From assembly GCA_965541615.1 (NCBI GenBank), contig CBEUCJ010000003.1:32186-96185 (forward strand): 64,000 nucleotides of DNA, in the 5' to 3' direction. The position numbers and the translations under genes are program-made. Below the pieces are notes generated by a model. The model searched no databases. It had not been told where the DNA came from and saw nothing but the letters and a program-made list of their open reading frames with translations. Source of the stretch: an uncultured bacterium (GTDB taxonomy: Bacteria > Omnitrophota > Gorgyraeia > Duberdicusellales > CBEUCJ01). Positions 8,747 to 50,507 of this stretch are shown here, one piece after another. Every line of letters begins with the position of its first letter. The stretch's first letter is position 1.

Positions 8747-10450
8747 TTACAAAGCTACTCTTAATACCTCTTCTAAGCTTGTTACTCCCTCTTCTACTTT
8801 TTTTATGCCACTTTCTAATAAAGTTCGCATTCCTGCTTTTTTAGCTTCTTCCCTTATAAGATGGATACTTTCATTCTTAGAAATCAACTCTTTCAATGGC
8901 TCATCTACAAATAAAATCTCTGCAATTAAAGTTCTATCTTTATATCCTATATTTTTACATTCTTTGCATCCTTTAGCTTTATAAATTATATCTTTATTTA
9001 TGCTCACTTTCAATTCTTTAAGAATATCTTTCTCAACTTCATAAGGCTGCTTACAGTTAGGACATAGTTTTCTAATTAATCTTTGAGCGACTATACATGT
9101 TAAAGAAGCACTCACCAAATAAGGAGGTAAACCTATATCTATCAATCTAGTTATAGCTGAAGGTGCATCGTTTGTATGCAAAGTAGAAAGAACCAAATGT
9201 CCTGTTAACGATGCTCTAACACAAATTTCTGCTGTCTCTAAATCTCTAATCTCACCTACCATTATGATATCTGGGTCTTGTCTTAAAAAATGTCTTAAAA
9301 CTCTCGCAAAAGTCAATCCTATTTCAGGTTTTACTTGAACTTGATTTATTCCCTCTAATTTATACTCCACTGGATCTTCTACAGTTAAAATATTTTTTTT
9401 AGGAGATTTTATCTCATTTAAAATTGCATATAAAGTAGTGCTTTTCCCAGAACCAGTAGGACCTGTTAATAAAACTAATCCCCATGGAGAAGTAATCACT
9501 TTTCTCAATATTTTCAACTCTTCACTAGTAAACCCTAAGTAAGCTAAATCCAAAGGTACTCTGGACTTATCTAAGATTCTTATAACTACTTTTTCTCCAT
9601 AAATAGTAGGCACTGTTGAAACTCTCAAATCTATTATCTTATCTCCTTTCTTAACACTAAATCCACCATCTTGAGGTAATCTCTTTTCTGCTATATCCAT
9701 CTTAGAGAGAATCTTAATACGAGAAACTATAGGCAAATGCATGTGTTTAGCAGGTGAAGGAATCTCATACAAAACACCATCTATTCTATATCTTATTCTC
9801 AATCTATCAAAAAAGGGTTCAATATGAATGTCTGATGCCCTCTCTTCTATAGCTTCATTTAAGATTAAATCTACTAATCTTACTACCAAAGCCTCTTCTG
9901 CTTTCTCTACTAACTTATCTACACTTAATTCCTCCTGAGGAGGTGTTTCGGTTTTTGTCACCTCTTCTAAATCTACATCATAAGTAGATTCCACTGCTTT
10001 CTTTAAAAAATCTATTTTTCCATAAAATTCCTCAATAGATTTCAATATGTCTGACTTTGTAGAGACTACCAGATTTATTTGGCAACCAGTTAATTTCTTT
10101 AAATTATCTATTAAATCAAGATCTAAAGGATCTGAAATAGCACATGTAAGAGTATCTCCTTCTTTATTTAATGGTAAAACTAAATTTTTAACCGCTTCTT
10201 CTTTTGGAATTAACTCTTCCAATTTTTGATGAGGGTTGGGTTTTAAAAGGCCTGAAGAATAGGAAAGAAAAGGAAGATGTAGCTGTTCACTTAAAGCTCT
10301 CGCTAAATCCTCTTCTTTAATTATACCTTTTTTTATTAAAATTTCTCCTAATCTACCTCCCTCTTTCTTTTGAATCTCCAAAGCTTCTTTTAAGTTCTTT
10401 TCTGAAATTAACCCTTTTCTAATTAAAATTTCTCCTATTTTATCTTTCAT
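8747..10450 (-). CDS. GspE/PilB/MshE-family assembly ATPase with tandem MshEN c-di-GMP-binding motifs and C-terminal tetracysteine
   Basis: Walker A GPTGSGKST. Asp box and His box (LSTLHTND). CPNC...CKEC zinc motif. N-terminus KIGEILIRKGLISEKNLKEALEIQ-KKEGG-RLGEILIKKGIIKEEDLARALSEQ. Confidence 0.9.
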   Translation of the reverse strand: MKDKIGEILIRKGLISEKNLKEALEIQKKEGGRLGEILIKKGIIKEEDLARALSEQLHLPFLSYSSGLLKPNPHQKLEELIPKEEAVKNLVLPLNKEGDTLTCAISDPLDLDLIDNLKKLTGCQINLVVSTKSDILKSIEEFYGKIDFLKKAVESTYDVDLEEVTKTETPPQEELSVDKLVEKAEEALVVRLVDLILNEAIEERASDIHIEPFFDRLRIRYRIDGVLYEIPSPAKHMHLPIVSRIKILSKMDIAEKRLPQDGGFSVKKGDKIIDLRVSTVPTIYGEKVVIRILDKSRVPLDLAYLGFTSEELKILRKVITSPWGLVLLTGPTGSGKSTTLYAILNEIKSPKKNILTVEDPVEYKLEGINQVQVKPEIGLTFARVLRHFLRQDPDIIMVGEIRDLETAEICVRASLTGHLVLSTLHTNDAPSAITRLIDIGLPPYLVSASLTCIVAQRLIRKLCPNCKQPYEVEKDILKELKVSINKDIIYKAKGCKECKNIGYKDRTLIAEILFVDEPLKELISKNESIHLIREEAKKAGMRTLLESGIKKVEEGVTSLEEVLRVAL

Positions 10451-33620: not shown

Positions 33621-34990
33621 TACTTTAGTATCTTTTTAAAATAATTTATTTGATTGGTTACTGACTCAAAAGAAGAACTAGGCTTTGTTTTTTTAAATTT
33701 AAATAACTTTTTGTAATCTAAGACTTCTTTTATATCTTCTTCAAATTTTCTATTGAATCTTTTAAAATCTTTTAAATCTAAATCTGAAATCTTAATTTTA
33801 TTTTCTTCACAATAACTCAAAATCTTTGTAGTTATTTTATAAGAACTCTCATAATCACACCCTTTTCTCATCAAATATTCTGAGAGTTCTGGTGCAAAAA
33901 CAAAATCATTCTCTTTTATAGCTTTTAAAACATTTTTTTCATTTAACTTTATACTTTTAAAGATGCTTTTTAAAAGGACTAATACATCTTCTACAACTTT
34001 TATACTTCTAATCAAATAAGATTTATCTAACTGATAATCTCTGTTGTATCCTGTAATTAGACCTTTAAGTAAATAAGAAAACCCTGTAAAATCTGCAAAT
34101 AAAAAACTTATCTTTGCTCTTATTAATTCTAAAGCATCTGGATTTTTTTTGTGAGGCATAGCAGATGACCCTGTCAAAAATCTTTCATCTAAATCTATAA
34201 ATCTCAAGTTATCCTGAAAATAAAAGATTAAATCCTGACTGATTTTTTGAAGAGTAATTCCTATACACAAATTAGAAAATAAAAATTCTAAAACAAATTT
34301 TCTGTTATCAGTTCCATAGATACTATTAAAAACTGCTTTTTTAAATCCTAATTCTTTTCTTAAAAACTCTGTATCTAAAGGAATTTGTGTTCCACCTATA
34401 CTTTGAGAACCCAAAATTAAAACATCCATCCTATCTAAAAGTTCTTTAAACAAAGATTTATCATCTTCTAAATACCAAATATAATTTAGAAGAAAATGTG
34501 AGAATAGAACGAGCTGAGAGAATTTGGTGTGAGTGAAAGCTAAAAATGGTTTATCTTTGTATTTTTGAGCTTTCTTTAATATTTCTTTCTGTAAAGATGA
34601 AATCTTTTCTATAATTTGAAGTATCTTATCCTTACAAAATAACCTTAATTCTGTTACCACTAAATCATTTCTGGACCTTCCTGCATGCAAAAACTTTGAA
34701 AGAGCTTTTACTTTCTTCTTTAATAAATGGAAAAAGAAAGTATGGATATCTTCATAATGAGGAGAGTAATCTATCTTTTTATTTTTAAATTCTTCATAAA
34801 TCTCATCTATTGCTTTTAAAAGCTTTTTTTCACTAGTTTTGTCTAAAATTTTTGCACGTCTTAAAGCTTTTATGTAAGCAGAATTTACTTTTACTTCATA
34901 AGGAAATAAAAATTCATCTTCAGTTTTTGAGAATTCTAAAAAGAATTTATCCTGCTCAGATTTTATTCTGCTCTTCCAAAAAGTCTTCAT
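33620..34990 (-). CDS. argH: Argininosuccinate lyase
   Basis: GRSRNDLV. GSSAMPHKKNPD fumarate-lyase signature. Confidence 0.9.
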   Translation of the reverse strand: MKTFWKSRIKSEQDKFFLEFSKTEDEFLFPYEVKVNSAYIKALRRAKILDKTSEKKLLKAIDEIYEEFKNKKIDYSPHYEDIHTFFFHLLKKKVKALSKFLHAGRSRNDLVVTELRLFCKDKILQIIEKISSLQKEILKKAQKYKDKPFLAFTHTKFSQLVLFSHFLLNYIWYLEDDKSLFKELLDRMDVLILGSQSIGGTQIPLDTEFLRKELGFKKAVFNSIYGTDNRKFVLEFLFSNLCIGITLQKISQDLIFYFQDNLRFIDLDERFLTGSSAMPHKKNPDALELIRAKISFLFADFTGFSYLLKGLITGYNRDYQLDKSYLIRSIKVVEDVLVLLKSIFKSIKLNEKNVLKAIKENDFVFAPELSEYLMRKGCDYESSYKITTKILSYCEENKIKISDLDLKDFKRFNRKFEEDIKEVLDYKKLFKFKKTKPSSSFESVTNQINYFKKILK

Positions 34991-36159
34991 TTTCTTATAA
35001 AAGGAAGTCTGAAGATTTCAATGAAACCTTCTGCCCACTTTTGATTAAAAACAGATTCTTTTGAATAGGTGGCTAACTCTTTTTTGTAAAGAGAGTGCTT
35101 AGCATATCTTTCTAAGATTTGAATGTTTCCTTTATATAACCTTAACTTTATTTTTCCTGTTAAAAATCTTCTTAAATAATCAAAGAATTTATCCAAAGCT
35201 ATTTTTAAATCTGTAAAAAACAATCCATAGTAAATTAACTCTGAATACTTTGAAGACAAAATATCAAAAAAATGTAAAGTTTCTCTATCTAAAACTAAAC
35301 TGTATAACTCTTCATACACTTTATGCAAAATTACACTTTGAGGAGTTTCATAAATCTCTCTACTTTTAATACCTACCAACCTATTCTCTATCATATCTAT
35401 CCTTCCAACACCTGTCTTTGCACCTGCTTCTCTTAAGATCTCAATCATCTTTTTAAAAGAGACTTTTTTACCATTTAATTTAAAAGGGATACCTTCTTTG
35501 AGTTCGATCTCTAAATCTATAGGTTTATTAATAGCAAATTCTGGAGCTCTTACTAAAAAATAGGAATCTTTTGGAGGAGGATTTTTTAAATCTTCTAAGG
35601 GACCTGCTTCTATACTTAAACCCCAAATATTTTCATCTAAACTGTAAGGATGTGATTTTTTAACTTTTAACTTTAAGCCTTTTTTTAACAAAAATTCAGC
35701 TTGTTCTTCTCTGGATTTAAAATGCCATTCTCTAACTGGAGCTAAAATCTTTATTTTAGGATTTAAGATTTTAGCACTAACTTCTATTCTTACTTGGTCG
35801 TTACCTTTGCCTGTGCAACCATGAGCTACAAAATCTGTCTTTTCAGCTTTTGCGATCTCTACTAAGTATTTAGCTATTAAGGGTCTGGATAAAGACGTAA
35901 ATAAAGGATATTTAGACTCATAAAGAGATTTAGCCCAAAGAGAAGGCAATATAAAATCTTTTAAAAATTCATCTAATAAATCCTTAATATAAATTTTTTC
36001 AGCTCCTAATCTTAAAGCTCTTTTTTTAATCTCATTAAAGTTTTCTTTTTGACCGATCTTTGCTGAAAAACATATCACTCTAAAGCCTTTTTCTCTCAAA
36101 TAAGGAATACAACAACTGGTATCTAAACCTCCTGAATAAGCTAAAATTACCTTCTTCAT
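34987..36159 (-). CDS. argG: Argininosuccinate synthase
   Basis: AYSGGLDTS PP-loop. Confidence 0.9.
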   Translation of the reverse strand: MKKVILAYSGGLDTSCCIPYLREKGFRVICFSAKIGQKENFNEIKKRALRLGAEKIYIKDLLDEFLKDFILPSLWAKSLYESKYPLFTSLSRPLIAKYLVEIAKAEKTDFVAHGCTGKGNDQVRIEVSAKILNPKIKILAPVREWHFKSREEQAEFLLKKGLKLKVKKSHPYSLDENIWGLSIEAGPLEDLKNPPPKDSYFLVRAPEFAINKPIDLEIELKEGIPFKLNGKKVSFKKMIEILREAGAKTGVGRIDMIENRLVGIKSREIYETPQSVILHKVYEELYSLVLDRETLHFFDILSSKYSELIYYGLFFTDLKIALDKFFDYLRRFLTGKIKLRLYKGNIQILERYAKHSLYKKELATYSKESVFNQKWAEGFIEIFRLPFIRK

Positions 36160-37049
36160 TTCTTATAAATCTTTGTTAAAATTGCCATTTGAGCATAAAG
36201 TCTATTTTCAGCTTGCAGAAAAATTAGACTATTTTCTGATTCTAAAATATCATCTGTAACTTCTGCTCCTCTCTTAGCAGGTAAACAATGCATTATAAAA
36301 GGTGTCTTATTACAATATTTTAAAAGTTTTTTATTCAGTTGAAAACCTTTAAAGGCTTTTATTTTGGTTTTGGCTTCCTTTTCCTGCCCCATAGAGACCC
36401 AAACATCTGTGTAGATAATATCTGAATCTTTTATTGCTTTCTTTGGCTCAGTAAATATCTTCAACTTTTTGTGACCAGAATTTTTTATTATCTCCTCTTT
36501 AGGTTTGTATTTTTCAGGAGTAGCTATATTTAAAGGAATATTTAATTTAGCTGTTCCATATATTAAAGAATGACACACATTGTTACCATCTCCTATAAAA
36601 GCTATTTTTACTTTTTTAAAACTTTTAAAGATCTCCTTTATAGTAATTAAATCTCCTAAAATTTGGCAAGGGTGTAATAAATCTGTAAGAGCATTTATTA
36701 CAGGGATTTCTGAGTACTTTTTAAATTCTAATAGATCTGAATGAGAAAATAATCTTAAAATAACTCCATCTAAATATTTAGAAAGAGTTCTGGCTATATC
36801 TTTTATAGGCTCTCTTTTGCCTAACCCTATATCCTGATTAGAAAGATATACAGCTTTTCCTCCTAATTTTGAGATTCCCACTTCAAAACTTACTCTTGTT
36901 CTTAAAGAAGGTTTTTGAAAAATTAAACCTAAAATTTTTTCTTTTAAAATTTGAGGATAATGTTTTCTTTTCTTTAAAGCTAAACCCAATTCAATTAGTT
37001 CTAAAAGTTCTGAAGATTTAAGATTTTTAAGAGTAATAAAATCTTTCAT
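36156..37049 (-). CDS. argF: Ornithine carbamoyltransferase
   Basis: KPSLRTRVSFE. HCLPA. DVWVSMGQE (the OTCase-specific motif). Confidence 0.85.
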   Translation of the reverse strand: MKDFITLKNLKSSELLELIELGLALKKRKHYPQILKEKILGLIFQKPSLRTRVSFEVGISKLGGKAVYLSNQDIGLGKREPIKDIARTLSKYLDGVILRLFSHSDLLEFKKYSEIPVINALTDLLHPCQILGDLITIKEIFKSFKKVKIAFIGDGNNVCHSLIYGTAKLNIPLNIATPEKYKPKEEIIKNSGHKKLKIFTEPKKAIKDSDIIYTDVWVSMGQEKEAKTKIKAFKGFQLNKKLLKYCNKTPFIMHCLPAKRGAEVTDDILESENSLIFLQAENRLYAQMAILTKIYKK

Positions 37050-38224
37050 TTGAATTCTTTTTTAAAACAGAATTCTAAAATATCTAATCCTTTATGTAAA
37101 AGTTCTTCAGGTGTATTTAAAGCAGGTAATAACCTTAAGATTTTTTGATGAGTGCAATTTATCAACAATTTATTCTTAAAAGCTCTCTCTGCTATCTTTT
37201 GAGCTGATGTCTTTAATTCTATCCCTATCATAAACCCTTTTCCTCTTACTTCTTTTATCACCTTAAATTTATTTTTTAATTTATAAAGCCTTTCAAATAT
37301 TTTTTTACTTAAAAATCTTACTCTTTTTATCAAATCCTCTTCTTCTATAATTTTAAAGACTTCTAAAGCTACTCTACAAGCTAAAGGATTTCCTCCAAAA
37401 GTAGAAGCATGCATTCCAGGTTTAAAGACATCAGCTTTATCTATATGAGCTACAAAAGCTCCTATAGGAAAACCTGCTCCTAAACCTTTTGACAAACACA
37501 TACCATCAGGAATAATTCCATAGTCTTTAAACAAAAACCACTTCCCGCACCTTCCCATACCAGTCTGTACTTCATCTACAATAAAAAGAATATTTTTTTC
37601 TTTACAGATTTGATAAACTTTTTTAATAAAATCTATATCTGCTACATTTATGCCACCTTCTCCTTGAATCAACTCTAAAAATACAGCACAGGTTTTTGGA
37701 CTCAGTTTTTTTTCAAAATCTTTGATATCATTGAATTTACAGAATTTGGCTCCTTTCAATAAAGGTTTAAAAGGCATTTGATATTTTTTTTGAGCAGTTA
37801 AACTCAAAGCACCCATAGTTCTTCCATGAAAAGAATTTTTCATCGATATTATCTCATATTTATTCCAAGATTTGCCCCAAGCTCTACAAAATTTAATAGC
37901 AGTCTCTACAGATTCTGCTCCTGAATTACAAAAAAACACTTTACCTTTAAAAGCTCTCTTTACAATCTCTTTGGCTAACTCTCCTTGAAATTCATTATAA
38001 AAATTGTTAGGTAGATGTATTAATTTTTTTGCTTGCTGTGAGATTACTTTTGAAATTCTGGGATGAACATGTCCTAAGATCGATGTTCCCCAACCAGGAA
38101 ATAAATCTATATATCTTTCTCCTTCTGTTGAATATAAATAAACACCTTTTCCTTTTACAAATACAACTTTAGCTCTTTGATAGGTATTTAAGACGTATTT
38201 TTGGGTAACTTCAATTAAATTCAT
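37046..38224 (-). CDS. argD: Acetylornithine aminotransferase (class III)
   Basis: DEVQTGMGRCG. PLP-Lys region. Confidence 0.85.
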   Translation of the reverse strand: MNLIEVTQKYVLNTYQRAKVVFVKGKGVYLYSTEGERYIDLFPGWGTSILGHVHPRISKVISQQAKKLIHLPNNFYNEFQGELAKEIVKRAFKGKVFFCNSGAESVETAIKFCRAWGKSWNKYEIISMKNSFHGRTMGALSLTAQKKYQMPFKPLLKGAKFCKFNDIKDFEKKLSPKTCAVFLELIQGEGGINVADIDFIKKVYQICKEKNILFIVDEVQTGMGRCGKWFLFKDYGIIPDGMCLSKGLGAGFPIGAFVAHIDKADVFKPGMHASTFGGNPLACRVALEVFKIIEEEDLIKRVRFLSKKIFERLYKLKNKFKVIKEVRGKGFMIGIELKTSAQKIAERAFKNKLLINCTHQKILRLLPALNTPEELLHKGLDILEFCFKKEFK

Positions 38225-39075
38225 CTCAAAATCTCTGTACCTATTCCTTCATCTGTAAATATCTCTAACAACAAAGAATGAGGAATTAATGCTGAAATTA
38301 TATGCACTTTTTTCACACCTTCTTTTAAAGCTGATATTGCATTTTGAACTTTAGGAACCATACCTTGATTTATCACTCCTTCTTTTATTAATCTCTGAGC
38401 TTCGGGTTCAGTAAGGGTAGGGATAAAGCTATCTTCTGTATCTCCTCTCATTATCCCTCTTACATCAGTTAAAAAAATGAGTTTTTCTGCTTTTAATTTA
38501 GCTGCCAATTTTGAAGCTGATTCATCTGCATTTAGATTAAATTTTTCTCTGGTCTTTGAAATTCCCATTGGAGTAATAACAGGTATAAAATGCTCTTGAC
38601 AAGCTTTTAAGATTTTTTCAGGATTAACTTCTATAACTCTTCCCACATACCCTAAATCTATTTCTGAAACTTTCTTCTCAGCTATAAACACACAATCTTC
38701 TGTCTTGAAACCTCTAACATTTGCTTTATGAGAGCTTATCTCTTTTACTAAAAGATCATTTATTTTGTTTAACTCTTCTTCTACTATCTCTAAAGTCCTT
38801 AAATCTGTCTTTCTCATTCCTTCATAAAATTCTGTTTTTATACCCTCCTTTTTTAATCTTTCTGAAATTTGAGGACCTCCTCCATGAACTAATACTGGTC
38901 TAATCCCACTGAAAGCTAAAAACACTATATCTTCTAAAACTTCTTTTCTCACACGCTCTTCTCCTAAAATAGAACCTCCATACTTTATAACAAAAATTTT
39001 CTTATGAAATCTCTTTAGATAGGGTAAAGCTTCAATTAAAACTTGAGCTTTTTTGATGGCAGTTTCTAATTTCAT
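38221..39075 (-). CDS. argB: Acetylglutamate kinase
   Basis: VIKYGGS amino-acid-kinase start. Confidence 0.85.
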   Translation of the reverse strand: MKLETAIKKAQVLIEALPYLKRFHKKIFVIKYGGSILGEERVRKEVLEDIVFLAFSGIRPVLVHGGGPQISERLKKEGIKTEFYEGMRKTDLRTLEIVEEELNKINDLLVKEISSHKANVRGFKTEDCVFIAEKKVSEIDLGYVGRVIEVNPEKILKACQEHFIPVITPMGISKTREKFNLNADESASKLAAKLKAEKLIFLTDVRGIMRGDTEDSFIPTLTEPEAQRLIKEGVINQGMVPKVQNAISALKEGVKKVHIISALIPHSLLLEIFTDEGIGTEILR

Positions 39076-40265
39076 TTTAAATTTATCTTTACGTATTCAG
39101 AGCTCAAATCTGAAGTATAAAATTCAAAAGAAAAAGGTTTTTTAAAAAAATCAATCTCTATAGTAAATCTTTTATTATTTACAAGCCCAGTTACTTTATT
39201 TAAATTTTTGTAATTAGGTTCTCCTTTTTTGAAAATCTGATATTTTTTGTTTTCTGATGATAAAGAAATTGAAAAATCTGTTTCTCTTATTTTTAAAGAA
39301 GGAACAGCCCCTAAACTTTGAATTAATCTCCCTAAGTTAAATCCTGTGCAGAAAGATATCCTTAAAAGTATATTTTGACAGATAGCATCAAAAACTTTTT
39401 TTGCTTTGTTGAATTCTAAACCTTTTATTCTCACAGTTATAAATTTATTTGCTCCTTCAGCATCTTCTATTATTTTCTTTGAAAGTTCTTTAAAAACTAT
39501 GCTCAACTCTTTTTTAAATGCTTTTAAATATCTCTTGTTTTTGGTCAAATCTATTTCTGATAGTCCATTGCATAACAAAAAGACTGAATCATTTGTGCTT
39601 AAAGCTGAATCTACGTTTATTCTGTGAAAGGAATCCTGCAGGCAATCATTAACGATCTTATCTAAATTATTTCTGTCGATTTTAGCATCTGTTAATAAAA
39701 AGCAGAGCATAGTAGCAAAGTCAGGATGGATCATTCCAGCTCCTTTTACTATCCCTAAAATGTTTATATTTCTATCTTTAATTCTTAAAGAACTGCTAAC
39801 TATTTTAGGAAAAGTATCTGTAGTCATTATACTCTCAGCAAATTCTAATACTTTATAAGGAGAGAGATTTTTCAAAAGCCTATCAAAAGCTTTTTTTATC
39901 TTATCTGAAGGAAAGGGAATTGAGATCTTTCCTGTAGAAGCAATGAACACTTCTTCTTTTTTTAAAGATAATTTTTTAGAAATCTCTTTTACTAAATTTT
40001 GGGTCTCTGAAAAGTATTTCTTACCATTAGCACAGTTAGCATTTCCACTGTTTACCAAAATAGCTCTTTGAAAAGAGGTTTTTTTCATATTTTCCAAACA
40101 TACCTTTATAGAATTAGACTTTATATTGTTTTTTGTAAATTTTGCTAATGCTAAAGTTTTAGTAGCTGAATAAATGAGTCCTAAATCTCTCTTTCTTTTC
40201 TTTATCCCACAGTTTATGCCTGAAAATAAAAATCCTACAGGTATATTAATTTTTGAACCCTTCAT
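39072..40265 (-). CDS. argJ: Bifunctional glutamate N-acetyltransferase / ornithine acetyltransferase
   Basis: ATMLCFLLTDA autoproteolytic Thr site. Confidence 0.85.
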   Translation of the reverse strand: MKGSKINIPVGFLFSGINCGIKKRKRDLGLIYSATKTLALAKFTKNNIKSNSIKVCLENMKKTSFQRAILVNSGNANCANGKKYFSETQNLVKEISKKLSLKKEEVFIASTGKISIPFPSDKIKKAFDRLLKNLSPYKVLEFAESIMTTDTFPKIVSSSLRIKDRNINILGIVKGAGMIHPDFATMLCFLLTDAKIDRNNLDKIVNDCLQDSFHRINVDSALSTNDSVFLLCNGLSEIDLTKNKRYLKAFKKELSIVFKELSKKIIEDAEGANKFITVRIKGLEFNKAKKVFDAICQNILLRISFCTGFNLGRLIQSLGAVPSLKIRETDFSISLSSENKKYQIFKKGEPNYKNLNKVTGLVNNKRFTIEIDFFKKPFSFEFYTSDLSSEYVKINLK

Positions 40266-41259
40266 CTTCTTTAAAACCTAACATTATATTCATATTTTGA
40301 ACTGCTTGACCTGAAGCTCCTTTCATTAAATTATCTATGCAAGTCACCAAAATCAACAATCTTTCTTTCTTAAAAAATCTAAATCCTATATCGCAAAAAT
40401 TTGTATCATACACATCTCTTATTTGAGGCAAATATCCATCAAAATACACTCTTACAAACTTTTCATTTTTATAAATCTCAAAAGCTTTAGAAATATCTTT
40501 TTCAGCTACTTTGGGTTTGGTTTTTATATAAATAGTAGTAAGGATACCTCTGTTAATAGGAACCAAATGAGGTGAAAAATGAATCTTAATCTTAGATTTT
40601 GTGATTTGAGTCGCAATTGATTCTATTTCTGGAGCATGTTGATGGATTAGAGGTTTATAACATTTCAGATTTTCATTTACCTCACAAAAACTTAATTCTA
40701 AATTTGGCTTTCTGCCTGCTCCTGTTACTCCTGACTTTGCATCTACTATTATATCAGAATCTGTGAGTTTAAATTTTAGAACAGGCAAAACTCCTAACAA
40801 AACAGCTGTAGGATAGCATCCAGGATTTGCTACTAACATAGCTTTTTTGATTTTATCTCTAAAAAATTCAGGTAGACCATAAACTGCTTTTTTTAGGTTT
40901 TTGGTATCTGTGTGTTTAGTGTAATACTTCTCATATAACTTGGGATCTTTTAATCTATAATCAGCACTTAAATCTATTACAGGCTTTTTCTTTCTTAAAA
41001 TCTCTGGAACATACTTTAAAGAAACTTTATGCGGTAAACACAAAAAGATAAAATCTTTTTCTAAGATCTCTTTTAAATCTGGTTTTTTACATAAAATATC
41101 TAATCTTCCTTTAAATTCTTTAAATATCTCTGAATAAGGTGTATTTTTATCTAAGAGAGCCCATAGACCAGAAATCTTTACTCTGTGATGGTTGAGTAAA
41201 ATTGAAATTAATTTTTTACCTGTGTAACCTGTAGCTCCTACAATTCCTACCTGAATCAT
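40246..41259 (-). CDS. argC: N-acetyl-gamma-glutamyl-phosphate reductase
   Basis: GATGYTG. ANPGCYPT catalytic Cys. Confidence 0.9.
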   Translation of the reverse strand: MIQVGIVGATGYTGKKLISILLNHHRVKISGLWALLDKNTPYSEIFKEFKGRLDILCKKPDLKEILEKDFIFLCLPHKVSLKYVPEILRKKKPVIDLSADYRLKDPKLYEKYYTKHTDTKNLKKAVYGLPEFFRDKIKKAMLVANPGCYPTAVLLGVLPVLKFKLTDSDIIVDAKSGVTGAGRKPNLELSFCEVNENLKCYKPLIHQHAPEIESIATQITKSKIKIHFSPHLVPINRGILTTIYIKTKPKVAEKDISKAFEIYKNEKFVRVYFDGYLPQIRDVYDTNFCDIGFRFFKKERLLILVTCIDNLMKGASGQAVQNMNIMLGFKEDEGFKN

Positions 41260-41377: not shown

Positions 41378-42199
41378 TCAACAAGAGAGTGTATTTATTA
41401 CTTCTTTTATAAAATCTTTATCTACTTCTAAAAACTTTATTCCTAAAAAATATTCTCCTTTATCGAGCATATTGCATCTTACAACTTGAGCTTTAGCTAT
41501 ATATTCAGAATTTTTAAAAAAGAACTTCACAGAAAGTTCTATTCCTGGAGGGAGGAATACAAAAGTTTTAACTCCCATTCCTTTCCCACTTTGGGATATG
41601 TCACATACAGTAGCTGAAATAGGAGCAGAAGAAATTAGTCTTATCCTGCTATCAGTAACCTTTATTTCTACAGGAAGATTTGCCTGTAACCTCTCTGACT
41701 CTCTACAAAAAATAAAATTAGATTTAGAAGAATAAGAATGAGTTAAGTACTCTTCCAAATTATACAACTCATCTTCTGGTCCAAAAAAATTATCTATTGC
41801 TTTTAAGATAGTTGTTGGTAAAGAAAATAGAGGAAAAACTTCTAATTCTGTTTTTACCTTTAGTTCTTTTATAAGATCAGCTTTTAAAGGATTAGCCATA
41901 GCTATAAAAAGAGTATTATCTACTTTAAAAAGTGGCACTAATAGATTTTCTCTATAAAATTCTTCAGAGAACAAACTCATTAATTCAGGATTAAGTTTGT
42001 AATCTGAAAGTCTTACTAAAGGAATCTGTGTCTGTTGGGCAAAGAAAGTATAGATATCTTCTTCAGTTAAATACCCTAACTTTATAAGTGTAGAAAATAA
42101 TGATTTTTTTATTTTTTTTTGTTCTTCTTTAGCTCTTAAAAGCTGTTCTAAAGTAAGATGAGTTTGTCTTAACAACCTTTCCTCTAAATCTTTTCTCAT
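41378..42199 (-). CDS. MshEN-like (T2SSE_N) domain fused to C-terminal PilZ domain; putative dual c-di-GMP receptor
   Basis: N-terminus DLEERLLRQTHLTLEQLLRAKEEQ-KKIKK-SLFSTLIKLGYLTEEDIYTFFAQQ (24+5+24 architecture). C-terminus RESER...DISQSGKGMG plus GIKF (PilZ RxxxR, DxSxxG). 4-nt overlap with the receiver gene. Confidence 0.55.
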   Translation of the reverse strand: MRKDLEERLLRQTHLTLEQLLRAKEEQKKIKKSLFSTLIKLGYLTEEDIYTFFAQQTQIPLVRLSDYKLNPELMSLFSEEFYRENLLVPLFKVDNTLFIAMANPLKADLIKELKVKTELEVFPLFSLPTTILKAIDNFFGPEDELYNLEEYLTHSYSSKSNFIFCRESERLQANLPVEIKVTDSRIRLISSAPISATVCDISQSGKGMGVKTFVFLPPGIELSVKFFFKNSEYIAKAQVVRCNMLDKGEYFLGIKFLEVDKDFIKEVINTLSC

Positions 42200-42753
42200 T
42201 TTTCTCCTTTTGGAGAAGAATATTTTCTCACAAATTGTGTAATTATCTCACAAATTTTTTTCTCATCTAACTTCACAGAAGTATTAGAAACAATATCAGG
42301 ATACTTTTCTTTAAGATCTCTTATCCACTCAGCTTGCTGACGAGCTATTTGTAATAAGAGTCTATTTTCTTTTAAAACTCTGTAGTAATCGAAAGCATGT
42401 TTTAAAAGAATCTTTAATTCTTCTGGATCTATAGGTTTTGTTATGTAACGCCAAATGTGAGCTTTGTTTATTGCCTCCATTGCACTGTTCAAATCTGGAT
42501 ACCCAGTAACGAGTATTCTAATGGTATCTGGATAGCGCATCTTTACTTTTAAAAGAAAATCTATTCCAGAGATTCCTGGTAAACGTTGATCACATAATAC
42601 TACCTCTACTTCTCCCTTTTCTTGTAATATCTGCCATGCTTTCTCAGCATTTTCTGCAGTAAAAATCTCTCTTTCTTCAGAAGCTAAAAGCCTTTTTAGA
42701 GAAGTGAGAATATGGGGTTCATCATCTACAATTAAAATAGTGTGTTTAGACAT
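42196..42753 (-). CDS. Response regulator receiver protein with ~60-aa C-terminal extension, no recognisable output domain
   Basis: ILIVDDEPH. LCDQRLPG phospho-Asp. LVTGY. ITKP. Confidence 0.8.
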   Translation of the reverse strand: MSKHTILIVDDEPHILTSLKRLLASEEREIFTAENAEKAWQILQEKGEVEVVLCDQRLPGISGIDFLLKVKMRYPDTIRILVTGYPDLNSAMEAINKAHIWRYITKPIDPEELKILLKHAFDYYRVLKENRLLLQIARQQAEWIRDLKEKYPDIVSNTSVKLDEKKICEIITQFVRKYSSPKGEK

Positions 42754-42771
42754 AATCTTCCTCCTCTAATA

Positions 42772-42972
42772 CTACTTTTTATGACTTAAATCTAAAAGAC
42801 TTAACGCAATACTAAAAAGCAAACACATTACTGAAAATCTCAAAATTCCAGTTGTAGTAATCCCCCAAAAGATTTTCTTTATCTCCAAAAGTCTTAATAC
42901 TACTCCTACCATAAAACTTACAAAAGCTATAGCTATAAACAAATCATCTCCTAATCTGTACATATTCTTCAT
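42772..42972 (-). CDS. Small two-TM membrane protein (paralog B)
   Basis: 66 aa. Ends ...LLFSIALSLLDLSHKK, about 45% identical to 43371..43574. SD-like ggaggtg 6 nt upstream. Confidence 0.4.
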   Translation of the reverse strand: MKNMYRLGDDLFIAIAFVSFMVGVVLRLLEIKKIFWGITTTGILRFSVMCLLFSIALSLLDLSHKK

Positions 42973-43003
42973 CTTTTACACCTCCTTTTTATTACAACAA
43001 ATC

Positions 43004-43366
43004 TCATATTTTAATAACTTTTCTTTCTTTATTTTTACTAATAAGTTCTTTAAAAAGAGAAGGGTAAACTTTAATAAATCTTATACCCATTCCTGAAGGT
43101 AAATGCTCTCCTTCATTATAATTTAATTGAGTTTCCAGTCTTCTCCAAACGACTACTCCTTGAATGTACACTTCCATTTCAGGTTCGTTTAATTTAAAAA
43201 GTAACTCCACTGGTGTGTTAGGAGGATCTGTTTTATTTGTAACCACAAAAGCACCTTGAGATGAAATATCTTTTACCTTTGCAAGTTGCCATATTCTTTT
43301 ACTTCTATATTCTACAGGAATTTTTAAAGGTATCCTTTCAAATTTTCTTTTATCTTTCATATTCAT
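43004..43366 (-). CDS. PilZ domain protein
   Basis: RKFERIP. DISSQGAFV. GMGIRF. Confidence 0.7.
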   Translation of the reverse strand: MNMKDKRKFERIPLKIPVEYRSKRIWQLAKVKDISSQGAFVVTNKTDPPNTPVELLFKLNEPEMEVYIQGVVVWRRLETQLNYNEGEHLPSGMGIRFIKVYPSLFKELISKNKERKVIKI

Positions 43367-43370
43367 TCAT

Positions 43371-43574
43371 TCATTCTTTTTTACTTAAATCCAATAAACT
43401 TAAAGAGATGCTAAAAAGTAAACATATCAAAGATAATCCTAAAAGTTCATCAGGGGTGATTTTCATAGAAGTCATTGCTTTTATTCCCCATAGTTTTGTT
43501 ATCCCCCCTATTACAAAGCTTATGAAAGCAAATATTACAAACAAATCTCCTCCTAAATTATAATTCTCTTTCAT
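43371..43574 (-). CDS. Small two-TM membrane protein (paralog A)
   Basis: 67 aa. ...LLFSISLSLLDLSKKE. SD ggaggtg upstream. Overlaps the HK stop. Confidence 0.4.
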   Translation of the reverse strand: MKENYNLGGDLFVIFAFISFVIGGITKLWGIKAMTSMKITPDELLGLSLICLLFSISLSLLDLSKKE

Positions 43575-44364
43575 AACTCACCTCCTTTTTAGGTAACACT
43601 ACTGTAAATGTAGCTCCCTTTCTATCTCTGTTTTCTACATCTATTCTTCCTTTATATTTTTTTATAATATCTCTACTTACATACAATCCTAAGCCTGTCT
43701 TTCCTTTCGTAGTAAAGAAGGGATCAAATATCTTTGGTATGATCTTTGGGTCTACTCCTCTTCCTGTATCTGAAATCTTTATATATAAATTTTCATCATC
43801 TTCAAAAGTAGAGATTTCTATTAATCCTCTACCATTCTCTATTGCCTCTGAAGCATTAAGAATTATGTTTAAAAACACTTGACCTAACTCAGTAGAATCT
43901 ACCCATATTTTGTCCTTAGCTTTATAATCTTTTATAATGTCTGCTTTATGCTTAATCTCATTCCACACTGCTCTTATTACACTATCTAAAAGCGTATTAA
44001 CATCTACTAAGGTCTTTTTTCCTCTTGCGCAGTGAGAGAAAAGGAGAAAATCTTGAACTACTCTCCTAATCCTGTAAGCTCCATTTAAACATTCTTCTAA
44101 GATTAAAGGTGCTTCTTCTAATCTTTGTCTTTGCTCAAGATAGCTTAAGAGGAGTTTCAAATTAACGATTAGATAACTTAAAGGATTATTTATCTCATGA
44201 GCTACACCTGCACATAAAGTCTTTAAAGAATTCATTTTTTCTTTATGAATATCATAAGCCTTTCTTTCTCTTTCACTTTTACTCTTTTTTTTATAGAGAA
44301 AGTAAAAGATGACAGCTATTAATGAGAAAGAAATAAAGAATATTAACACCATCTCATTTTGCAT
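43558..44364 (-). CDS. Sensor histidine kinase, minimal (one TM, no periplasmic/cytoplasmic sensor domain)
   Basis: H-box LCAGVAHEINNPL. N, G1, G2 boxes (DTGRGV, GLGL). Confidence 0.8.
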   Translation of the reverse strand: MQNEMVLIFFISFSLIAVIFYFLYKKKSKSERERKAYDIHKEKMNSLKTLCAGVAHEINNPLSYLIVNLKLLLSYLEQRQRLEEAPLILEECLNGAYRIRRVVQDFLLFSHCARGKKTLVDVNTLLDSVIRAVWNEIKHKADIIKDYKAKDKIWVDSTELGQVFLNIILNASEAIENGRGLIEISTFEDDENLYIKISDTGRGVDPKIIPKIFDPFFTTKGKTGLGLYVSRDIIKKYKGRIDVENRDRKGATFTVVLPKKEVSYEREL

Positions 44365-45619
44365 GCTTTACTACAGATATTAAATTCCATAAAGGTAAAA
44401 ATATCGCCAAAGCCATACCCATAACTACAACTCCCAAGACTGCTGTCATAATTGGCTCAATTAAAGAAGTTAAATTTCTTATCGTAGCTCTTACCTCTAA
44501 AGAATAATATTCACATAAAGAATCTAACATAGTAGGTAAAGCTCCTGTCTTTTCTCCAATTGAGATCATGTATCCTACTAATCTAGGAAATAACCTGCTA
44601 CCTAAAACACCTCCAGCTATTCCTTTTCCATCAGCTACATCTTTTTTAATATTCTCTATATCTTTAGATAAAATTACATTTCCAATCGTAGTCTTTACAA
44701 TGTTAAGAATAGTTAAAATAGGTAAACCTGCCTGATACAGGACATTTAACATAGATGCAAATCTTAACATTACTATTTTATTATAGATCTTACCAAATAT
44801 TGGCATCTTAAATTTTAAATTATCCCAGTACCATCTTCCTTTAGATGTATTTATTAAAAATCTAAATCCACTATAAAAAATAAATCCCATTACAAAAAGT
44901 ATTAAGTACCACGAAAATTTTAAAAAAACATTTCTACTCTCTCTCCATGGTCCTAATAAAAAGTTACTCACAGCTATCATTATTCTGGTAGGTAGAGGTA
45001 AACTCACTTTAAAACCTTGATAGATTCTAACAAAAGGAGGAACCACAAATACACTGAGCACAAATAAAGCTACAAAAAGAGCTATTATTACCATAATAGG
45101 ATACCTTAAAGCTGATTTTATTCCCATTTTAGTCTCTCTTTCTTCTTCTAAAACTTGAGCTAATCTTAACAAAACTTTATCTAAGACACCACCTGCTTCA
45201 CCTGCAACGACACTATTTACATACAATTCACTAAACACATGAGGATGCTTTGACATAGCTTCTGATAGTTTGTGTCCTTCTTCTATATCATGAATAATTT
45301 GATTAAGAGCTTCTTTTAAAACTTCATCTTCTGCTTGTTCAGTTAAAACTTTTAAACCTTCTATTATAGGAACAGCAGCTTTGACTATCGTAGCAAATTG
45401 GCGAGTAAAGACTATGAGAGCTTGGGAAGAGACTTTACGCATCCTTTTTTTAAAAAACCTCTCCCAGATAGAAGCAATATCTCTTTTGAATCCTATACTT
45501 ATTGGTGAATATCCTAACTTAGCAAGGTGGGTTGAGACTTCCAATTCATTTGCTGCTTCTAATTCTCCTTTAACGATCTTGCCTTGAGAGTCTATAGCTC
45601 TATAAATATACTTTCCCAT
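44354..45619 (-). CDS. GspF/PilC/MshG-family platform protein (second copy)
   Basis: 421 aa. Duplicated T2SSF domains, 3 TM segments. Confidence 0.85.
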   Translation of the reverse strand: MGKYIYRAIDSQGKIVKGELEAANELEVSTHLAKLGYSPISIGFKRDIASIWERFFKKRMRKVSSQALIVFTRQFATIVKAAVPIIEGLKVLTEQAEDEVLKEALNQIIHDIEEGHKLSEAMSKHPHVFSELYVNSVVAGEAGGVLDKVLLRLAQVLEEERETKMGIKSALRYPIMVIIALFVALFVLSVFVVPPFVRIYQGFKVSLPLPTRIMIAVSNFLLGPWRESRNVFLKFSWYLILFVMGFIFYSGFRFLINTSKGRWYWDNLKFKMPIFGKIYNKIVMLRFASMLNVLYQAGLPILTILNIVKTTIGNVILSKDIENIKKDVADGKGIAGGVLGSRLFPRLVGYMISIGEKTGALPTMLDSLCEYYSLEVRATIRNLTSLIEPIMTAVLGVVVMGMALAIFLPLWNLISVVKHAK

Positions 45620-45620
45620 A

Positions 45621-46463
45621 TTAACTGAGATTGAATTCTTTTATTACTGAATTTATAAATTGAGCATCTATTTTTGAGATCTTTTTAGCAAATCCTGAAA
45701 GCAGAACTAAATCACAAAGAGTGTTTATTTTTCTAGGGATGCCTCCTGTATGGTTAAATATTACTTTAATAGCTTCAGAATCAAAAACTGGTTCTAAAGA
45801 ACCTTGAGCTGGATTCTCAAGTCTGGCTACATTTATTCTATGTTCAATGTATTTGGCTACATCTTCTTCTGTCAAAGGTCCTAAGTGGCATCTTATAGGT
45901 ATCCTTTGAACAAAAGGTTTTATCATTTCTACTTTATCTTTGAGTTCGGGTTGACCTAATATAAGGAGGGTTAAGAGGAATCTATTTTCATTTTGAAAAT
46001 TCAAGATTAATCTCAAAGTTTCAAATATTCTCATATTCTCTATAGTATGAGCTTCATCTATAATTACCACGTTCTCCTTTCCTTCACGAATATTATCTAT
46101 GAGGATATTATATAGTTTTTCTAATAGAGGGTCAATTAAGAGCTCTGTTTTCTTTTCTGGTAAAGGTTGAGGACTTAAAAGTCTTACTATTGATCTTATA
46201 AGTTCAGAGGGCTCAGAAAACAAAGGATGGTTTATGTAAGCAGTACAGAATTTTTGAGGACCTAACTCTTTCAAAATTACTCTTGCTAAAAGTGTTTTTC
46301 CACACCCAAAAACTCCAGTAAGCATACCGCATCCCAAATTTTGAGCTATAACATAAGTAAGTTTCATTAAAGCATCTTCGTGTTGGGGAGAAAGATATAA
46401 AAATCTGGGATCTGGTGTATTTTGAAATGGCTTTTCTTTCAAACCCCAGTAACTTTCATACAT
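45621..46463 (-). CDS. ExeA/GspA/MshM-like AAA ATPase
   Basis: N-terminus MYESYWGLKEKPFQNTPDPRFLYLSPQHEDAL...GVFGCGKTLL parallels the ExeA/MshM N-terminus (FGL...PF...PDPRFLY...GxGKT). Confidence 0.65.
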   Translation of the reverse strand: MYESYWGLKEKPFQNTPDPRFLYLSPQHEDALMKLTYVIAQNLGCGMLTGVFGCGKTLLARVILKELGPQKFCTAYINHPLFSEPSELIRSIVRLLSPQPLPEKKTELLIDPLLEKLYNILIDNIREGKENVVIIDEAHTIENMRIFETLRLILNFQNENRFLLTLLILGQPELKDKVEMIKPFVQRIPIRCHLGPLTEEDVAKYIEHRINVARLENPAQGSLEPVFDSEAIKVIFNHTGGIPRKINTLCDLVLLSGFAKKISKIDAQFINSVIKEFNLS

Positions 46464-48266
46464 CTATTTTTTACTTAACCAGCGCGTGATACGAGTTTTA
46501 TACTCTTCTAACGCCTGTGTATCTATTTTGATCTCTGTAGGTTTGGTGACTTTTGTCGTTTCTTTTTGAACAGCTATGTAAGGTTTTACTTCTGTTTCTA
46601 CAGGTTTTATCTCTACCTGCTCTTCACAGACTCTGGCTACCTCTTCAAAAGTAGTCAATCCTTTTAAAACTTTTTCTCTTCCATCTTCCCACAATAACCT
46701 CATACCTTTTTCCTGAGCTTTCTTTCTCAAAACCACAGTGGAAGCTCCTTGGTTAATTAGTTCTCTGATCTCATCATCCACTACCATCAATTCAAAAATA
46801 CCTGTTCTCCCTTTGTAACCTGTTCCTTTACATTCAGCACATCCTTTACCTCTATATACAGTTATGTTACCTCTATCTTCTAACTTCCATTTTTTAAGGA
46901 CTGCTTTTGAGGGTGTGTAAGGTTCTTTACATTTAGGACAGATTAATCTCACTAATCTCTGAGCCATTACCCCTATCAAAGAAGCTGCAACTAAAAATTG
47001 TTCTACTCCCATGTCCACTAATCTGGCTACAGCTGATGGTGCGTCATTAGTATGCAAAGTAGAAAAGACCAAGTGTCCAGTTAAAGCTGCCTGCACTGCC
47101 ATACGAGCAGTTTCTAAATCTCTTATTTCACCTACCATTATTACATCTGGGTCTTGACGCAGAATAGCTCTTAAACCTGTAGCAAAAGTTATACCTGCTT
47201 TGGGATTTACTTGAACTTGTCTAATTAAACCTAATCTGTATTCTACAGGATCTTCCAATGTAATTATATTTCTTTCAGGAGTATTTATTCTCATTAAAGC
47301 TGAATATAAAGTAGTGGTCTTTCCACTTCCTGTAGGACCTGTTGAAAGTATTATTCCGTATGGCTTTTTTATCAACTCTTCAAATCTCTTCAAATCCTCA
47401 TAAGTAGTAAACCCTAATCTTTCTAAACCTATCGTCACAGAAGCAGTATCTAACAGTCTTAAGACAACATTTTCTCCATGGATTGTAGGAAGGGTTGAGA
47501 CACGAAAATCTATTAATTTATCATCTACTATTGCCTGAAAATGTCCATCTTGGGGAATTCTGGATTCAGCTATATCCATACCTGCTAAAACTTTTATTCT
47601 GGAAATAATAGCTGCCTCCCACTCTTTTGGAGGAGAAGGAATCTCATGCAAAATTCCATCTATACGAAACCTGATCCTTGTAGTTTTCTCTTCTGGTTCA
47701 ATATGAATATCTGAAGCTCTATCTCTTACTGCCTGGGCTATAATTAAATCTACAATCCTTACAATAGATGTCGTCTCACTTAAAGGTTTTCCTTCCTCTT
47801 TTGCTACTTCTAATTCTGCAAACAGATTTTCTTTCTTTTTTTGATAAATTCTATTCAAAGCATCTTCAATTTCTTGTGCAGAAGAGAAATAAACTTCGAT
47901 TGGATAGTTAGTAAAAAGTTGTATCTGATCTATTAATGAAATATCTTGAGGATCTTGCATTGCTACATGTAAAATGCCATCCTTTATAAAAAGAGGAACT
48001 GACTTTGTAGACCGAGCTAATTCTTCTGGATATATTTTTAATAGATCTTCTTCTACTTCTAAATTATCTAAATTTTTGTATTCTACTCCTAACTTTTCAG
48101 CTACAGCTTTATAGAGAACTTCTTTTTTTAATAAATGCATATCTATAATTACTCTTTCTAAAGGGCGTTTTAATTTTTTTGTTTCATCTATTGCTTTTTC
48201 TAACTCCTCAGGTGTTAATAAATTTTTATTTAAAAGTAATTCTCTTAATTCTTCTTCACTAATCAT
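46464..48266 (-). CDS. GspE/PilB/MshE-family assembly ATPase (second copy; N-domain motifs degenerate)
   Basis: GPTGSGKTT. His box STLHTND. CPKC...CAEC. N-domain LRELLLNKNLLTPEELEKAIDET keeps the hydrophobic pattern but lacks the R/G/Q positions of the MshEN consensus. Confidence 0.9.
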   Translation of the reverse strand: MISEEELRELLLNKNLLTPEELEKAIDETKKLKRPLERVIIDMHLLKKEVLYKAVAEKLGVEYKNLDNLEVEEDLLKIYPEELARSTKSVPLFIKDGILHVAMQDPQDISLIDQIQLFTNYPIEVYFSSAQEIEDALNRIYQKKKENLFAELEVAKEEGKPLSETTSIVRIVDLIIAQAVRDRASDIHIEPEEKTTRIRFRIDGILHEIPSPPKEWEAAIISRIKVLAGMDIAESRIPQDGHFQAIVDDKLIDFRVSTLPTIHGENVVLRLLDTASVTIGLERLGFTTYEDLKRFEELIKKPYGIILSTGPTGSGKTTTLYSALMRINTPERNIITLEDPVEYRLGLIRQVQVNPKAGITFATGLRAILRQDPDVIMVGEIRDLETARMAVQAALTGHLVFSTLHTNDAPSAVARLVDMGVEQFLVAASLIGVMAQRLVRLICPKCKEPYTPSKAVLKKWKLEDRGNITVYRGKGCAECKGTGYKGRTGIFELMVVDDEIRELINQGASTVVLRKKAQEKGMRLLWEDGREKVLKGLTTFEEVARVCEEQVEIKPVETEVKPYIAVQKETTKVTKPTEIKIDTQALEEYKTRITRWLSKK

Positions 48267-48900
48267 TTCTCAACATTTTTTTAATCTCTTTTATCCATTC
48301 TTCAATCTCTTTCTTTTCTTTATGAGAAGCAAATTTCAAATACTTCTGATAATAATTAATAGCCCTCCTCTTATCATTAAGATAACTCTCATAGAGTACT
48401 CCTAAATTATAATATGCATCTTTATCAGAAGGATTTAATTGAATAACTTTTTCAAAGGAATGAGCTGCCTGAATGTAATTTGACTTTTTTAGATAAATTA
48501 CTCCTAAATTATAATAAATATCTGGATTTTGAGGATACTTTTTTAAAATCTTTTTGTAAATGCTTAATGCCTTATCATACTCTTCTTTCTGAAAAGCATG
48601 TTCTGCTTCTTCTAAAATATTCTTATCTTTTTTCTCTTCCTTTTTTTTCTCTATAAAAATTTTAGGACTTTCTTTTCCTATCTTTTGCTCAGCAGAAAAA
48701 GATGTTAATCTGTCTAAAATTTCTTCTGCTTTTTTAAAAAACTCTTCTGCAGACTTATAATCTCCTTTTAACATTAGTTCCTTACCTTTTAAATAGTAGA
48801 TTTGGGCATTATTTATCTGCTCATCACAAAAACTTATGTAAATGGGAAAGAATAAAAATAGTAAACAGATTTTAAAGAGTAATTTACTTTGTTTTTTCAT
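48259..48900 (-). CDS. Secreted TPR protein (MshN-like position)
   Basis: Signal peptide. 4-5 TPR units (YYNLGVIY..., YYNLGVLY...). Confidence 0.55.
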   Translation of the reverse strand: MKKQSKLLFKICLLFLFFPIYISFCDEQINNAQIYYLKGKELMLKGDYKSAEEFFKKAEEILDRLTSFSAEQKIGKESPKIFIEKKKEEKKDKNILEEAEHAFQKEEYDKALSIYKKILKKYPQNPDIYYNLGVIYLKKSNYIQAAHSFEKVIQLNPSDKDAYYNLGVLYESYLNDKRRAINYYQKYLKFASHKEKKEIEEWIKEIKKMLRND

Positions 48901-50458: not shown

Positions 50459-50507
50459 AATTATTTTATCTTAATCTTTTTTTAAATTCAATTTTCACAA
50501 AAGCTAT

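Follow-up and report, generated by a model that had tools for sequence, protein, structure and literature searches.

The locus described here raises the question of whether a protein that joins an MshEN-type N-terminal domain to a PilZ domain responds to cyclic diguanylate (c-di-GMP) through two binding sites or through one, and what such a protein would do at the end of a type IV pilus operon. The protein is encoded in a 64,000-nucleotide stretch of contig CBEUCJ010000003.1 from an uncultured bacterium of the Omnitrophota; this whole stretch is called the window below. A first-pass annotation of the window had proposed that the fusion acts as a cooperative two-site c-di-GMP sensor or as an adaptor for the pilus ATPase. 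Our analysis favours, with a probability of roughly 60%, a single-site c-di-GMP receptor and adaptor dedicated to the MSHA-like (mannose-sensitive haemagglutinin) type IV pilus of Omnitrophota, in which c-di-GMP would bind only at the RxxxR/DxSxxG site of the PilZ domain.

Domain architecture of the fusion protein

The protein, of 273 aa, is encoded by a single open reading frame (ORF) at exactly 41378..42199 (stop codon at 41378-41380), on the minus strand, which the first-pass annotation had left unstated. The gene is preceded by a strong Shine-Dalgarno sequence (AAGGAG), and its start codon shares nucleotides with the stop codon of the preceding gene (ATGA), which encodes a stand-alone receiver (REC) protein. 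Its assignment as a fusion of an MshEN fold and a PilZ domain is based on the ORF, on two Pfam domains above their gathering scores and on 47 homologs, all of which are full-length matches of similar length (264-286 aa).

The two Pfam matches are MshEN (PF05157) at residues 58-144, with 61.5 bits for a cut-off of 23.1, and PilZ (PF07238) at residues 166-266, with 37.1 bits for a cut-off of 22.5. The PF05157 model, although named MshEN, describes the C-terminal subdomain only and leaves out the N-terminal stretch that had drawn attention to this protein. That stretch was recovered by comparison with sequences in the PDB. Using phmmer, residues 5-141 align with the N-domains of Myxococcus and Geobacter PilB, Thermus PilF, Vibrio cholerae MshE (5HTL), Xanthomonas citri PilB-N (7LKO/7LKM) and XpsE. 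Residues 7-73 of MshE (5HTL) align with residues 2-68 of the fusion without a gap and with a constant offset of 5. Since the alignment is ungapped, the 24/5/24 layout claimed initially is genuine, with motif 1 at residues 4-27, the spacer at 28-32 and motif 2 at 33-56. In the Pfam scan at E ≤ 1, MshEN and PilZ were the sole matches, so that neither the T2SSE ATPase domain (PF00437) nor the PilZN/YcgR_N domain was found by it in the fusion protein. The match to TIGR02538 is restricted to residues 5-153, and within the window a Walker A regular expression matches only the two true ATPases. The fusion protein may work like the YcgR-like family (PilZN plus PilZ), yet it is not a member of it.

An AlphaFold2 model was built from an alignment of 48 family sequences and has a mean predicted local distance difference test score (pLDDT) of 89. 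Residues 1-57 (42029..42199) form an MshEN_N-like four-helix subdomain, with helices at 2-12, 17-30, 34-40 and 46-57 and pLDDT values of 82-95. The first-pass annotation would have been undermined if these helices were lacking, and the four-helix bundle is present in the model. It is followed by an α/β subdomain of the MshEN_C or T2SSE_N1 type at residues 58-144 (41768..42028; pLDDT > 90). A linker of about 20 residues (145-165; 41705..41767) is predicted to be disordered, with pLDDT falling to about 50, and below 50 across residues 156-163, and ends at the RxxxR switch. The PilZ half (residues 166-273; 41381..41704) consists of six strands (residues 170-258) and a C-terminal helix (261-272). 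The predicted template modelling score (pTM) is 0.56, hence the mutual orientation of the N-half and the PilZ half is undefined in the model. Foldseek comparison of the N-half with the PDB gave PilF GSPII-A (9G1W) as the top match, together with c-di-GMP-bound MshE (5HTL, TMt 0.79), the X. citri PilB-N/PilZ complex (7LKM), PilF GSPII-B and the XpsE N-domain (2D27). The C-half matched the PilZ folds of 4I86, cellulose synthase BcsA, 4XRN, Alg44, MotI (5VX6) and PP4397 (3KYF). Pfam, the PDB sequence search, the AlphaFold model and Foldseek therefore agree, far beyond chance, on a protein made of an MshEN-type N-domain and a PilZ domain and devoid of an enzymatic domain, as had been proposed.

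State of the two candidate c-di-GMP sites

The MshEN site is formed by two copies of the motif RLGxxL(L/V/I)xxG(L/V/I/F)(L/V/I)xxxxLxxxLxxQ (Wang et al. 2016, PMC5013675), for which a relaxed search form, [RKPN]hGxxhhxx[GAS]hhxxxxhxxxhxx[QNKRYWST], is available (PMC5013675). In MshE the guanine is bound by the backbone amides of the Gly residues; binding is lost with the G11I substitution and reduced 36-fold with L10A (PMC5013675). The loss of binding in XpsE was attributed to changes that include G11V, L29R, R38G and G40L (PMC5013675). In a resurrected PilF GSPII-A domain, a Ser (S39) at the position equivalent to R38 causes complete loss of binding, and an Ala (A41) instead of Gly at the G40 position lowers affinity 10-30-fold (PMC12002112).

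Motif 1 of the fusion protein, DLEERLLRQTHLTLEQLLRAKEEQ (residues 4-27; 42119..42190), agrees with the strict motif at 6 of 11 positions and with the relaxed form at the same 6, the failing residues being D4, E6, T13, H14 and K24. Motif 2, SLFSTLIKLGYLTEEDIYTFFAQQ (residues 33-56; 42032..42103), also agrees at 6/11 positions in the strict form (failing at S33, F35, Y43, I49 and F53) and at 9/11 in the relaxed form. The second repeat had been described as good; however, its two failures in the relaxed form, S33 and F35, are precisely the Arg and the Gly of the RLG triad. Alignment and residue counts thus show both RLG triads replaced, by D4-L5-E6 and S33-L34-F35 respectively.

These replacements are a property of the family. 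Counted over 48 family sequences (33-98% identity), Gly is found at neither of the RLG-Gly positions in any member (0/48). Position 6 is E, Q or D in all 48 (E6 in 42), position 35 is an aromatic residue (W, Y or F) in all 48, and position 33 is S in 45 and S or T in all 48. Position 24, the counterpart of MshE L29, is occupied by K in 41/48, and K32 is kept in at least 90% of the members. The final Gln residues of the two motifs, Q27 and Q56, are present in the window protein; the family has A in 24/48 and E in 25/48 at these positions, respectively. More distant two-domain representatives carry the same S-h-W signature. Regarding the Leu clusters of the MshE site, the equivalents of L10-L54-L58 (L5/I49/F53) are still hydrophobic, while in the L25-L29-L39 cluster (L20/K24/L34) a Lys takes the place of L29, the residue changed to Arg in XpsE.

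The curated NCBIfam model for the motif (NF053729, c-di-GMP_motif; cut-off 38 bits) gave a consistent picture. The window fusion scores 33.6 bits and its homolog in a related locus (L003) gives no hit. The extension ATPases of the two corresponding pilus operons are also below the cut-off (34.5 bits in the window and 31.6 bits in L003), whereas the second pilus ATPase of each passes it (72.9 and 60.8 bits). The second ATPase of the window (8747..10450) carries KIGEILIRKGLISEKNLKEALEIQ and RLGEILIKKGIIKEEDLARALSEQ, two near-perfect MshEN motifs. AT-rich drift in the window, whose guanine-plus-cytosine content is 29.3%, is ruled out as the cause of motif loss, because canonical motifs are retained by this ATPase in the same sequence context. 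The N-half, judged from its sequence and from published mutagenesis, has retained the MshEN fold and lost the canonical c-di-GMP site, and its pocket looks inactive.

The PilZ half presents a different situation. The RxxxR motif is found as RESER at residues 166-170 (41690-41704) and the DxSxxG motif as DISQSG at residues 200-205 (41585-41602). Both motifs had been recognized correctly, but the placement of the domain at about residues 175-273 was slightly off. R166 and R170 are invariant in the 48 family members; position 200 is D or N in 48/48, S202 is conserved in 47/48 and G205 in 43/48. This canonical signature suggests that the PilZ half binds c-di-GMP, and it is the only half that looks binding-competent.

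Operon position and proposed mechanism

An MSHA-like type IV pilus operon, read from the minus strand, ends with the fusion gene. This position is conserved: in 12 independent loci, whose fusion proteins are 36-70% identical to that of the window, the gene lies after the ATPase/T2SSF block and ends the pilus operon (12/12). The suggested role as a pilus ATPase adaptor is in line with this strict conservation. The gene directly upstream encodes a REC protein in 11/12 loci, and in the window the two are translationally coupled (REC at 42196-42753; PF00072, 84.9 bits). Residues D10/D11, D55, T83 and K106 of REC, as read off the sequence, are intact, so that this protein is probably phosphorylatable. 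The extension ATPase of the operon (46464-48266), an MshE/PilB-like protein (PF00437, 475 bits), aligns with MshEN through a degenerate motif with E-L-R and P-L-E triads, and all ATPases of the operon type that bears the fusion have degenerate RLG triads (E-L-R/K and P-L-E/D).

The following mechanism can be proposed. Binding of c-di-GMP at RxxxR would re-orient the PilZ barrel relative to the N-domain, as expected from the location of this motif at the end of a flexible interdomain linker. Such re-orientation is established for two-domain PilZ receptors of the YcgR/PlzD type. The N-domain would be a docking module, which uses surfaces of the ATPase N1 type to contact the PilM-PilN stator or packs with the ATPase N-domains. 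Docking of the N1 domain on the PilM/GspL stator has been suggested (PMC11656802), and the PilM-PilN fusion encoded in the operon (53094-54851) is the likely stator partner of the ATPase N-domains. Control by c-di-GMP would thereby be placed on a motor whose ATPase no longer senses c-di-GMP. The coupled REC, fed by the histidine kinase where this is present, probably adds a second input through phosphorylation. REC-MshEN fusions occur elsewhere (Wang et al., PMC5013675), which suggests by analogy a direct link between REC and the N-domain. As for the sign of the control, we lean slightly towards promotion of pilus assembly by c-di-GMP, by analogy with MshE and with the Xanthomonas PilB-PilZ-FimX system.

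Several observations weigh against this single-site model. The residues that replace the former pocket are themselves strongly conserved (E6 42/48, K24 41/48, S33 45/48, aromatic residue at 35 48/48), a pattern that simple decay is not expected to yield and that may mean a new site for a ligand or a partner. The N-domain is somewhat closer to a canonical PilB-type N-domain (34% identity, 70 bits) than to that of the ATPase in its own operon (29%, 58 bits), and may therefore mimic another machine than that of its operon. The model does not predict the domain orientation (pTM 0.56) and so does not speak for a closed state. In the PilZ half, the Gly of DxSxxG is replaced in 5 of the 48 members, and 6 family members have no precomputed PilZ Pfam match. 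Finally, regular expressions for GGDEF, EAL and HD-GYP found nothing in the 64-kb window, a result that the size of the window makes uninformative.

Three other explanations were considered. A cooperative sensor in which the MshEN_N bundle and the PilZ barrel both bind c-di-GMP, as initially suggested, is very unlikely. The retained 24-5-24 spacing and four-helix bundle, the hydrophobic character of several positions, the presence of Q27 and Q56 in the window protein and a NF053729 score only 4.4 bits short of the cut-off (33.6 bits) would be in keeping with such a sensor, but the residues expected to hold the ligand are replaced family-wide. No member has an RLG Gly (0/48), and bulky E6 and F35 occupy these positions when G11I alone abolishes binding by MshE. 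S33 corresponds to S39 of PilF GSPII-A, with its complete loss of binding, and K24 to the L29R change of the non-binder XpsE; neither Q27 nor Q56 is conserved in the family (A in 24/48, E in 25/48). Base composition offers no way out, as the other ATPase of the same AT-rich window keeps its canonical motifs (72.9 bits). It is somewhat less improbable, but still a poor bet, that the pocket was remodelled instead of lost. The conserved site made of E6, K24, K32-S33 and the aromatic residue at 35 (41-48/48) would then serve a different small ligand such as another messenger, c-di-GMP held by aromatic stacking, or a protein interface, for example with phosphorylated REC. The strong purifying selection on E6 (42/48), K24 (41/48), K32 (at least 90%), S33 (45/48) and W/Y/F35 (48/48), as well as the persistence of the S-h-W signature in the most distant two-domain members, would be accounted for. 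However, no known ligand class is tied to such a motif, an aromatic residue in place of the Gly might equally well occlude the pocket or bind a base, and a partner interface or the stability of the bundle would explain the conservation equally well. If this remodelling were true, two signals would be integrated and the fusion would be a genuine two-input integrator on the pilus motor.

The last explanation, which we regard as doubtful though worth keeping in mind, reverses the sign of the control. A free N1-like domain could compete with the ATPase N-domain for the PilM-PilN socket, and the c-di-GMP-loaded protein would block extension in the manner of the YcgR flagellar brake. Homology to ATPase N-domains extends over the entire N-domain, PilM/GspL is the presumed docking site of N1 domains, and two-domain PilZ brakes (MotI, YcgR-type) are among the fold matches of the PilZ half. 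In characterized systems, on the other hand, c-di-GMP promotes extension of both MSHA and type IV pili, and identity to the N-domain of the operon ATPase is only 29%. Moreover, natural ATPases have up to three or more GSPII domains per protomer (PilF, and the multi-repeat matches obtained here), from which additional N-domains are suggested to be accessory and not inhibitory.

The single-site receptor/adaptor remains our preferred reading, and the rest of the operon can be described with it in mind. From its upstream end, the operon encodes a PilZ protein (54862-55209; motifs RKFLR...NISRNG), the 585-aa PilM-PilN fusion mentioned above, with PilM_2/FtsA-like and PilN domains in one polypeptide, PilO (52472-53092), a 157-aa protein (51998-52471), a secretin (50508-51962), a coiled-coil protein (48884-50458) and a TPR protein (48259-48900). 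The assignments in this part of the operon rest on Pfam matches. The extension ATPase is followed by an AAA_22 ATPase in the position of MshM/ExeA-type proteins (45621-46463; PF13401, 70.3 bits), a PilC/MshG-like T2SSF platform protein (44354-45619; PF00482, 185 bits) and a histidine kinase with HisKA and HATPase_c domains by Pfam (43558-44364). Between the kinase and REC lie a stand-alone PilZ protein of 120 aa (43004-43366; PF07238, 48.1 bits; RKFER and DISSQG by regular expression) and two paralogous ORFs that match no Pfam family, for a 67-aa hydrophobic protein (43371-43574) and a 66-aa hydrophobic, probably membrane, protein (42772-42972). The operon thus encodes two further stand-alone canonical PilZ proteins (54862-55209 and 43004-43366), which brings the PilZ domains of this one pilus machine to three. 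All these genes are on the minus strand. The order of the upstream part is the same in four related loci (L001 and L003-L005). Four of the 12 loci lack the histidine kinase and the stand-alone PilZ, and of the 11 loci that cover the interval from T2SSF to REC, 9 have a homolog of the 66-/67-aa proteins in it. A pilin gene often lies downstream of the fusion gene in related loci. In the window, six arginine-biosynthesis-type ORFs (34987-41259) begin on the same strand 118 nt downstream of the fusion gene; three were identified by Pfam as a semialdehyde dehydrogenase (ArgC-like), ArgJ and argininosuccinate synthase. A terminator scan detected no minus-strand terminator between the fusion gene and argC. 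In one relative, a REC-GGDEF gene adjoins the homologous pilus operon (L004:11835-12794), and its product is a possible local source of c-di-GMP.

A second cluster, resembling a type IV pilus or a type II secretion system, is located at 7521-14250, also on the minus strand. It encodes a PilN-domain protein (12796-14250), a secretin (10447-11928), the ATPase with the canonical MshEN domain (8747-10450; 72.9 bits with NF053729) and a T2SSF protein (7521-8735). No PilZ motif was matched by regular expression in this cluster. The distribution in the window is thus complementary: the cluster at 7521-14250 has an ATPase with a canonical MshEN domain and no PilZ match, and the operon at 41378-55209 combines a degenerate ATPase with three PilZ proteins. 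A recent duplication of the N-terminus of the neighbouring ATPase as the origin of the fusion N-domain is ruled out, the similarity between the two (29%, 58 bits) being lower than that to the canonical PilB-type N-domain (34%, 70 bits).

Family distribution and related systems

When 1.84 billion representatives were searched exhaustively with a profile, 97 matches were obtained at E ≤ 1e-30. About 35 of them are full-length two-domain proteins (265-295 aa), and the remainder are multi-GSPII ATPases and stand-alone MshEN proteins. A collection of genomes was also scanned, using an alignment of 9 sequences. Six loci of the collection (L014-L019) matched through the N-domain only and were left out of the family for this reason; L014, the one that was inspected, encodes an ATPase. 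All named family members come from metagenome-assembled genomes of Omnitrophota, and some third-party annotation records are titled 'uncultured Planctomycetia'. Judged by record names only, the fusion family is restricted to Omnitrophota. Its members are annotated generically, as 'PilZ domain-containing protein' or 'hypothetical protein'. The fusion partners of MshEN given by Wang et al. (PMC5013675) are REC, HD-GYP, CheA, CheX, cyclase, kinase and glycosyltransferase domains, and PilZ is not among them. The survey of PilZ architectures by Galperin and Chou mentions MshEN generically only. Our literature searches, which combined MshEN or T2SSE_N with PilZ and Omnitrophota with PilZ, found no description of the fusion, which does not prove that it is unpublished.

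The fusion can be compared with several characterized systems. It shares with V. cholerae MshE (5HTL, PMC5013675) the two-subdomain fold (TMt 0.79), the ungapped alignment, the 24-5-24 spacing and the association with an MSHA-like pilus operon. Unlike MshE, it has no ATPase domain after MshEN, R9/G11/L29/R38/G40 are replaced by D4/E6/K24/S33/F35, and its NF053729 score is below the cut-off. The GSPII-A domain of Thermus thermophilus PilF (9G1W, PMC12002112) is a naturally non-binding MshEN-like domain, in which R38 is likewise replaced by Ser and G40 by a residue other than Gly. However, GSPII-A belongs to a multi-GSPII ATPase and its motif 1 is nearly intact, whereas the fusion has both motifs altered and a PilZ domain. 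The X. campestris XpsE N-domain (2D27/2D28) is another MshEN fold that has lost binding, through changes of which those at G11, L29, R38 and G40 concern the same four positions, but in the context of a type II secretion ATPase without PilZ. In X. citri, a PilB N-domain devoid of the c-di-GMP motif binds a PilZ protein in trans (PMC8389850). The PilB(N)-PilZ-FimX complex (7LKM/7LKN/7LKO, PMC8389850) resembles the fusion in pairing a motif-less PilB N-domain with a PilZ fold and in placing a type IV pilus motor under c-di-GMP control. It differs in that the two domains of the fusion are covalently joined, its PilZ motifs are canonical and its operon has no FimX-like protein. By analogy, the fusion can be read as a covalent version of the X. 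citri PilB-N/PilZ pairing, for an ATPase without its own sensor. Finally, YcgR, PlzD (VCA0042) and MotI have the same succession of an N-terminal partner-binding domain, an RxxxR linker and a PilZ barrel, and structures of this group were matched by Foldseek (5VX6, 3KYF). In these proteins the N-domain is of the PilZN/YcgR_N type and the target is the flagellar motor, as opposed to an MshEN fold and a pilus here. The most fitting description of the fusion is a two-domain PilZ receptor with a new kind of N-domain, peculiar to an Omnitrophota pilus operon.

The combination of a degenerate N-domain paralog with a canonical PilZ domain, at the same end of the operon in all loci, suggests a possible way of moving c-di-GMP control off a pilus ATPase. 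The contacts made by ATPase N1 domains in the pilus base have been left open, because N1 is poorly resolved in ATPase structures, and the fusion, as a small and soluble protein, could be used to probe them. The organisms that carry the fusion are uncultured Omnitrophota, so that the impact of this family hinges on heterologous biochemistry. The case also calls for caution in genome censuses of c-di-GMP receptors, as a match to Pfam 'MshEN' reports the C-subdomain only and is silent on ligand binding.

Three further kinds of proteins were encountered in the related loci and searches. A 433-aa protein (P0188; L020:1677-2978) belongs to another MshEN-PilZ lineage, independent of the first; its N-terminus is a coiled coil, and it is encoded outside any pilus operon. 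Its MshEN triads are M-I-G and G-I-A and it passes the NF053729 cut-off (42.5 vs 38 bits), so that a true dual receptor is more plausible here than in the case of the window protein. The L014 ATPase, a 788-aa protein of Planctomycetota (L014:7986-10352), appears on reading its sequence to combine an MshEN-like N-terminus, a secretion-ATPase Walker A motif (GPTGSGKS) and a C-terminal receiver-like region. Such a protein would wire a two-component input to a secretion ATPase by another route. Lastly, many proteins of 1,000-1,325 aa (e.g. P0059, P0068, P0071 and P0088) contain 4-7 tandem MshEN-like domains, compared with three GSPII domains in Thermus PilF.

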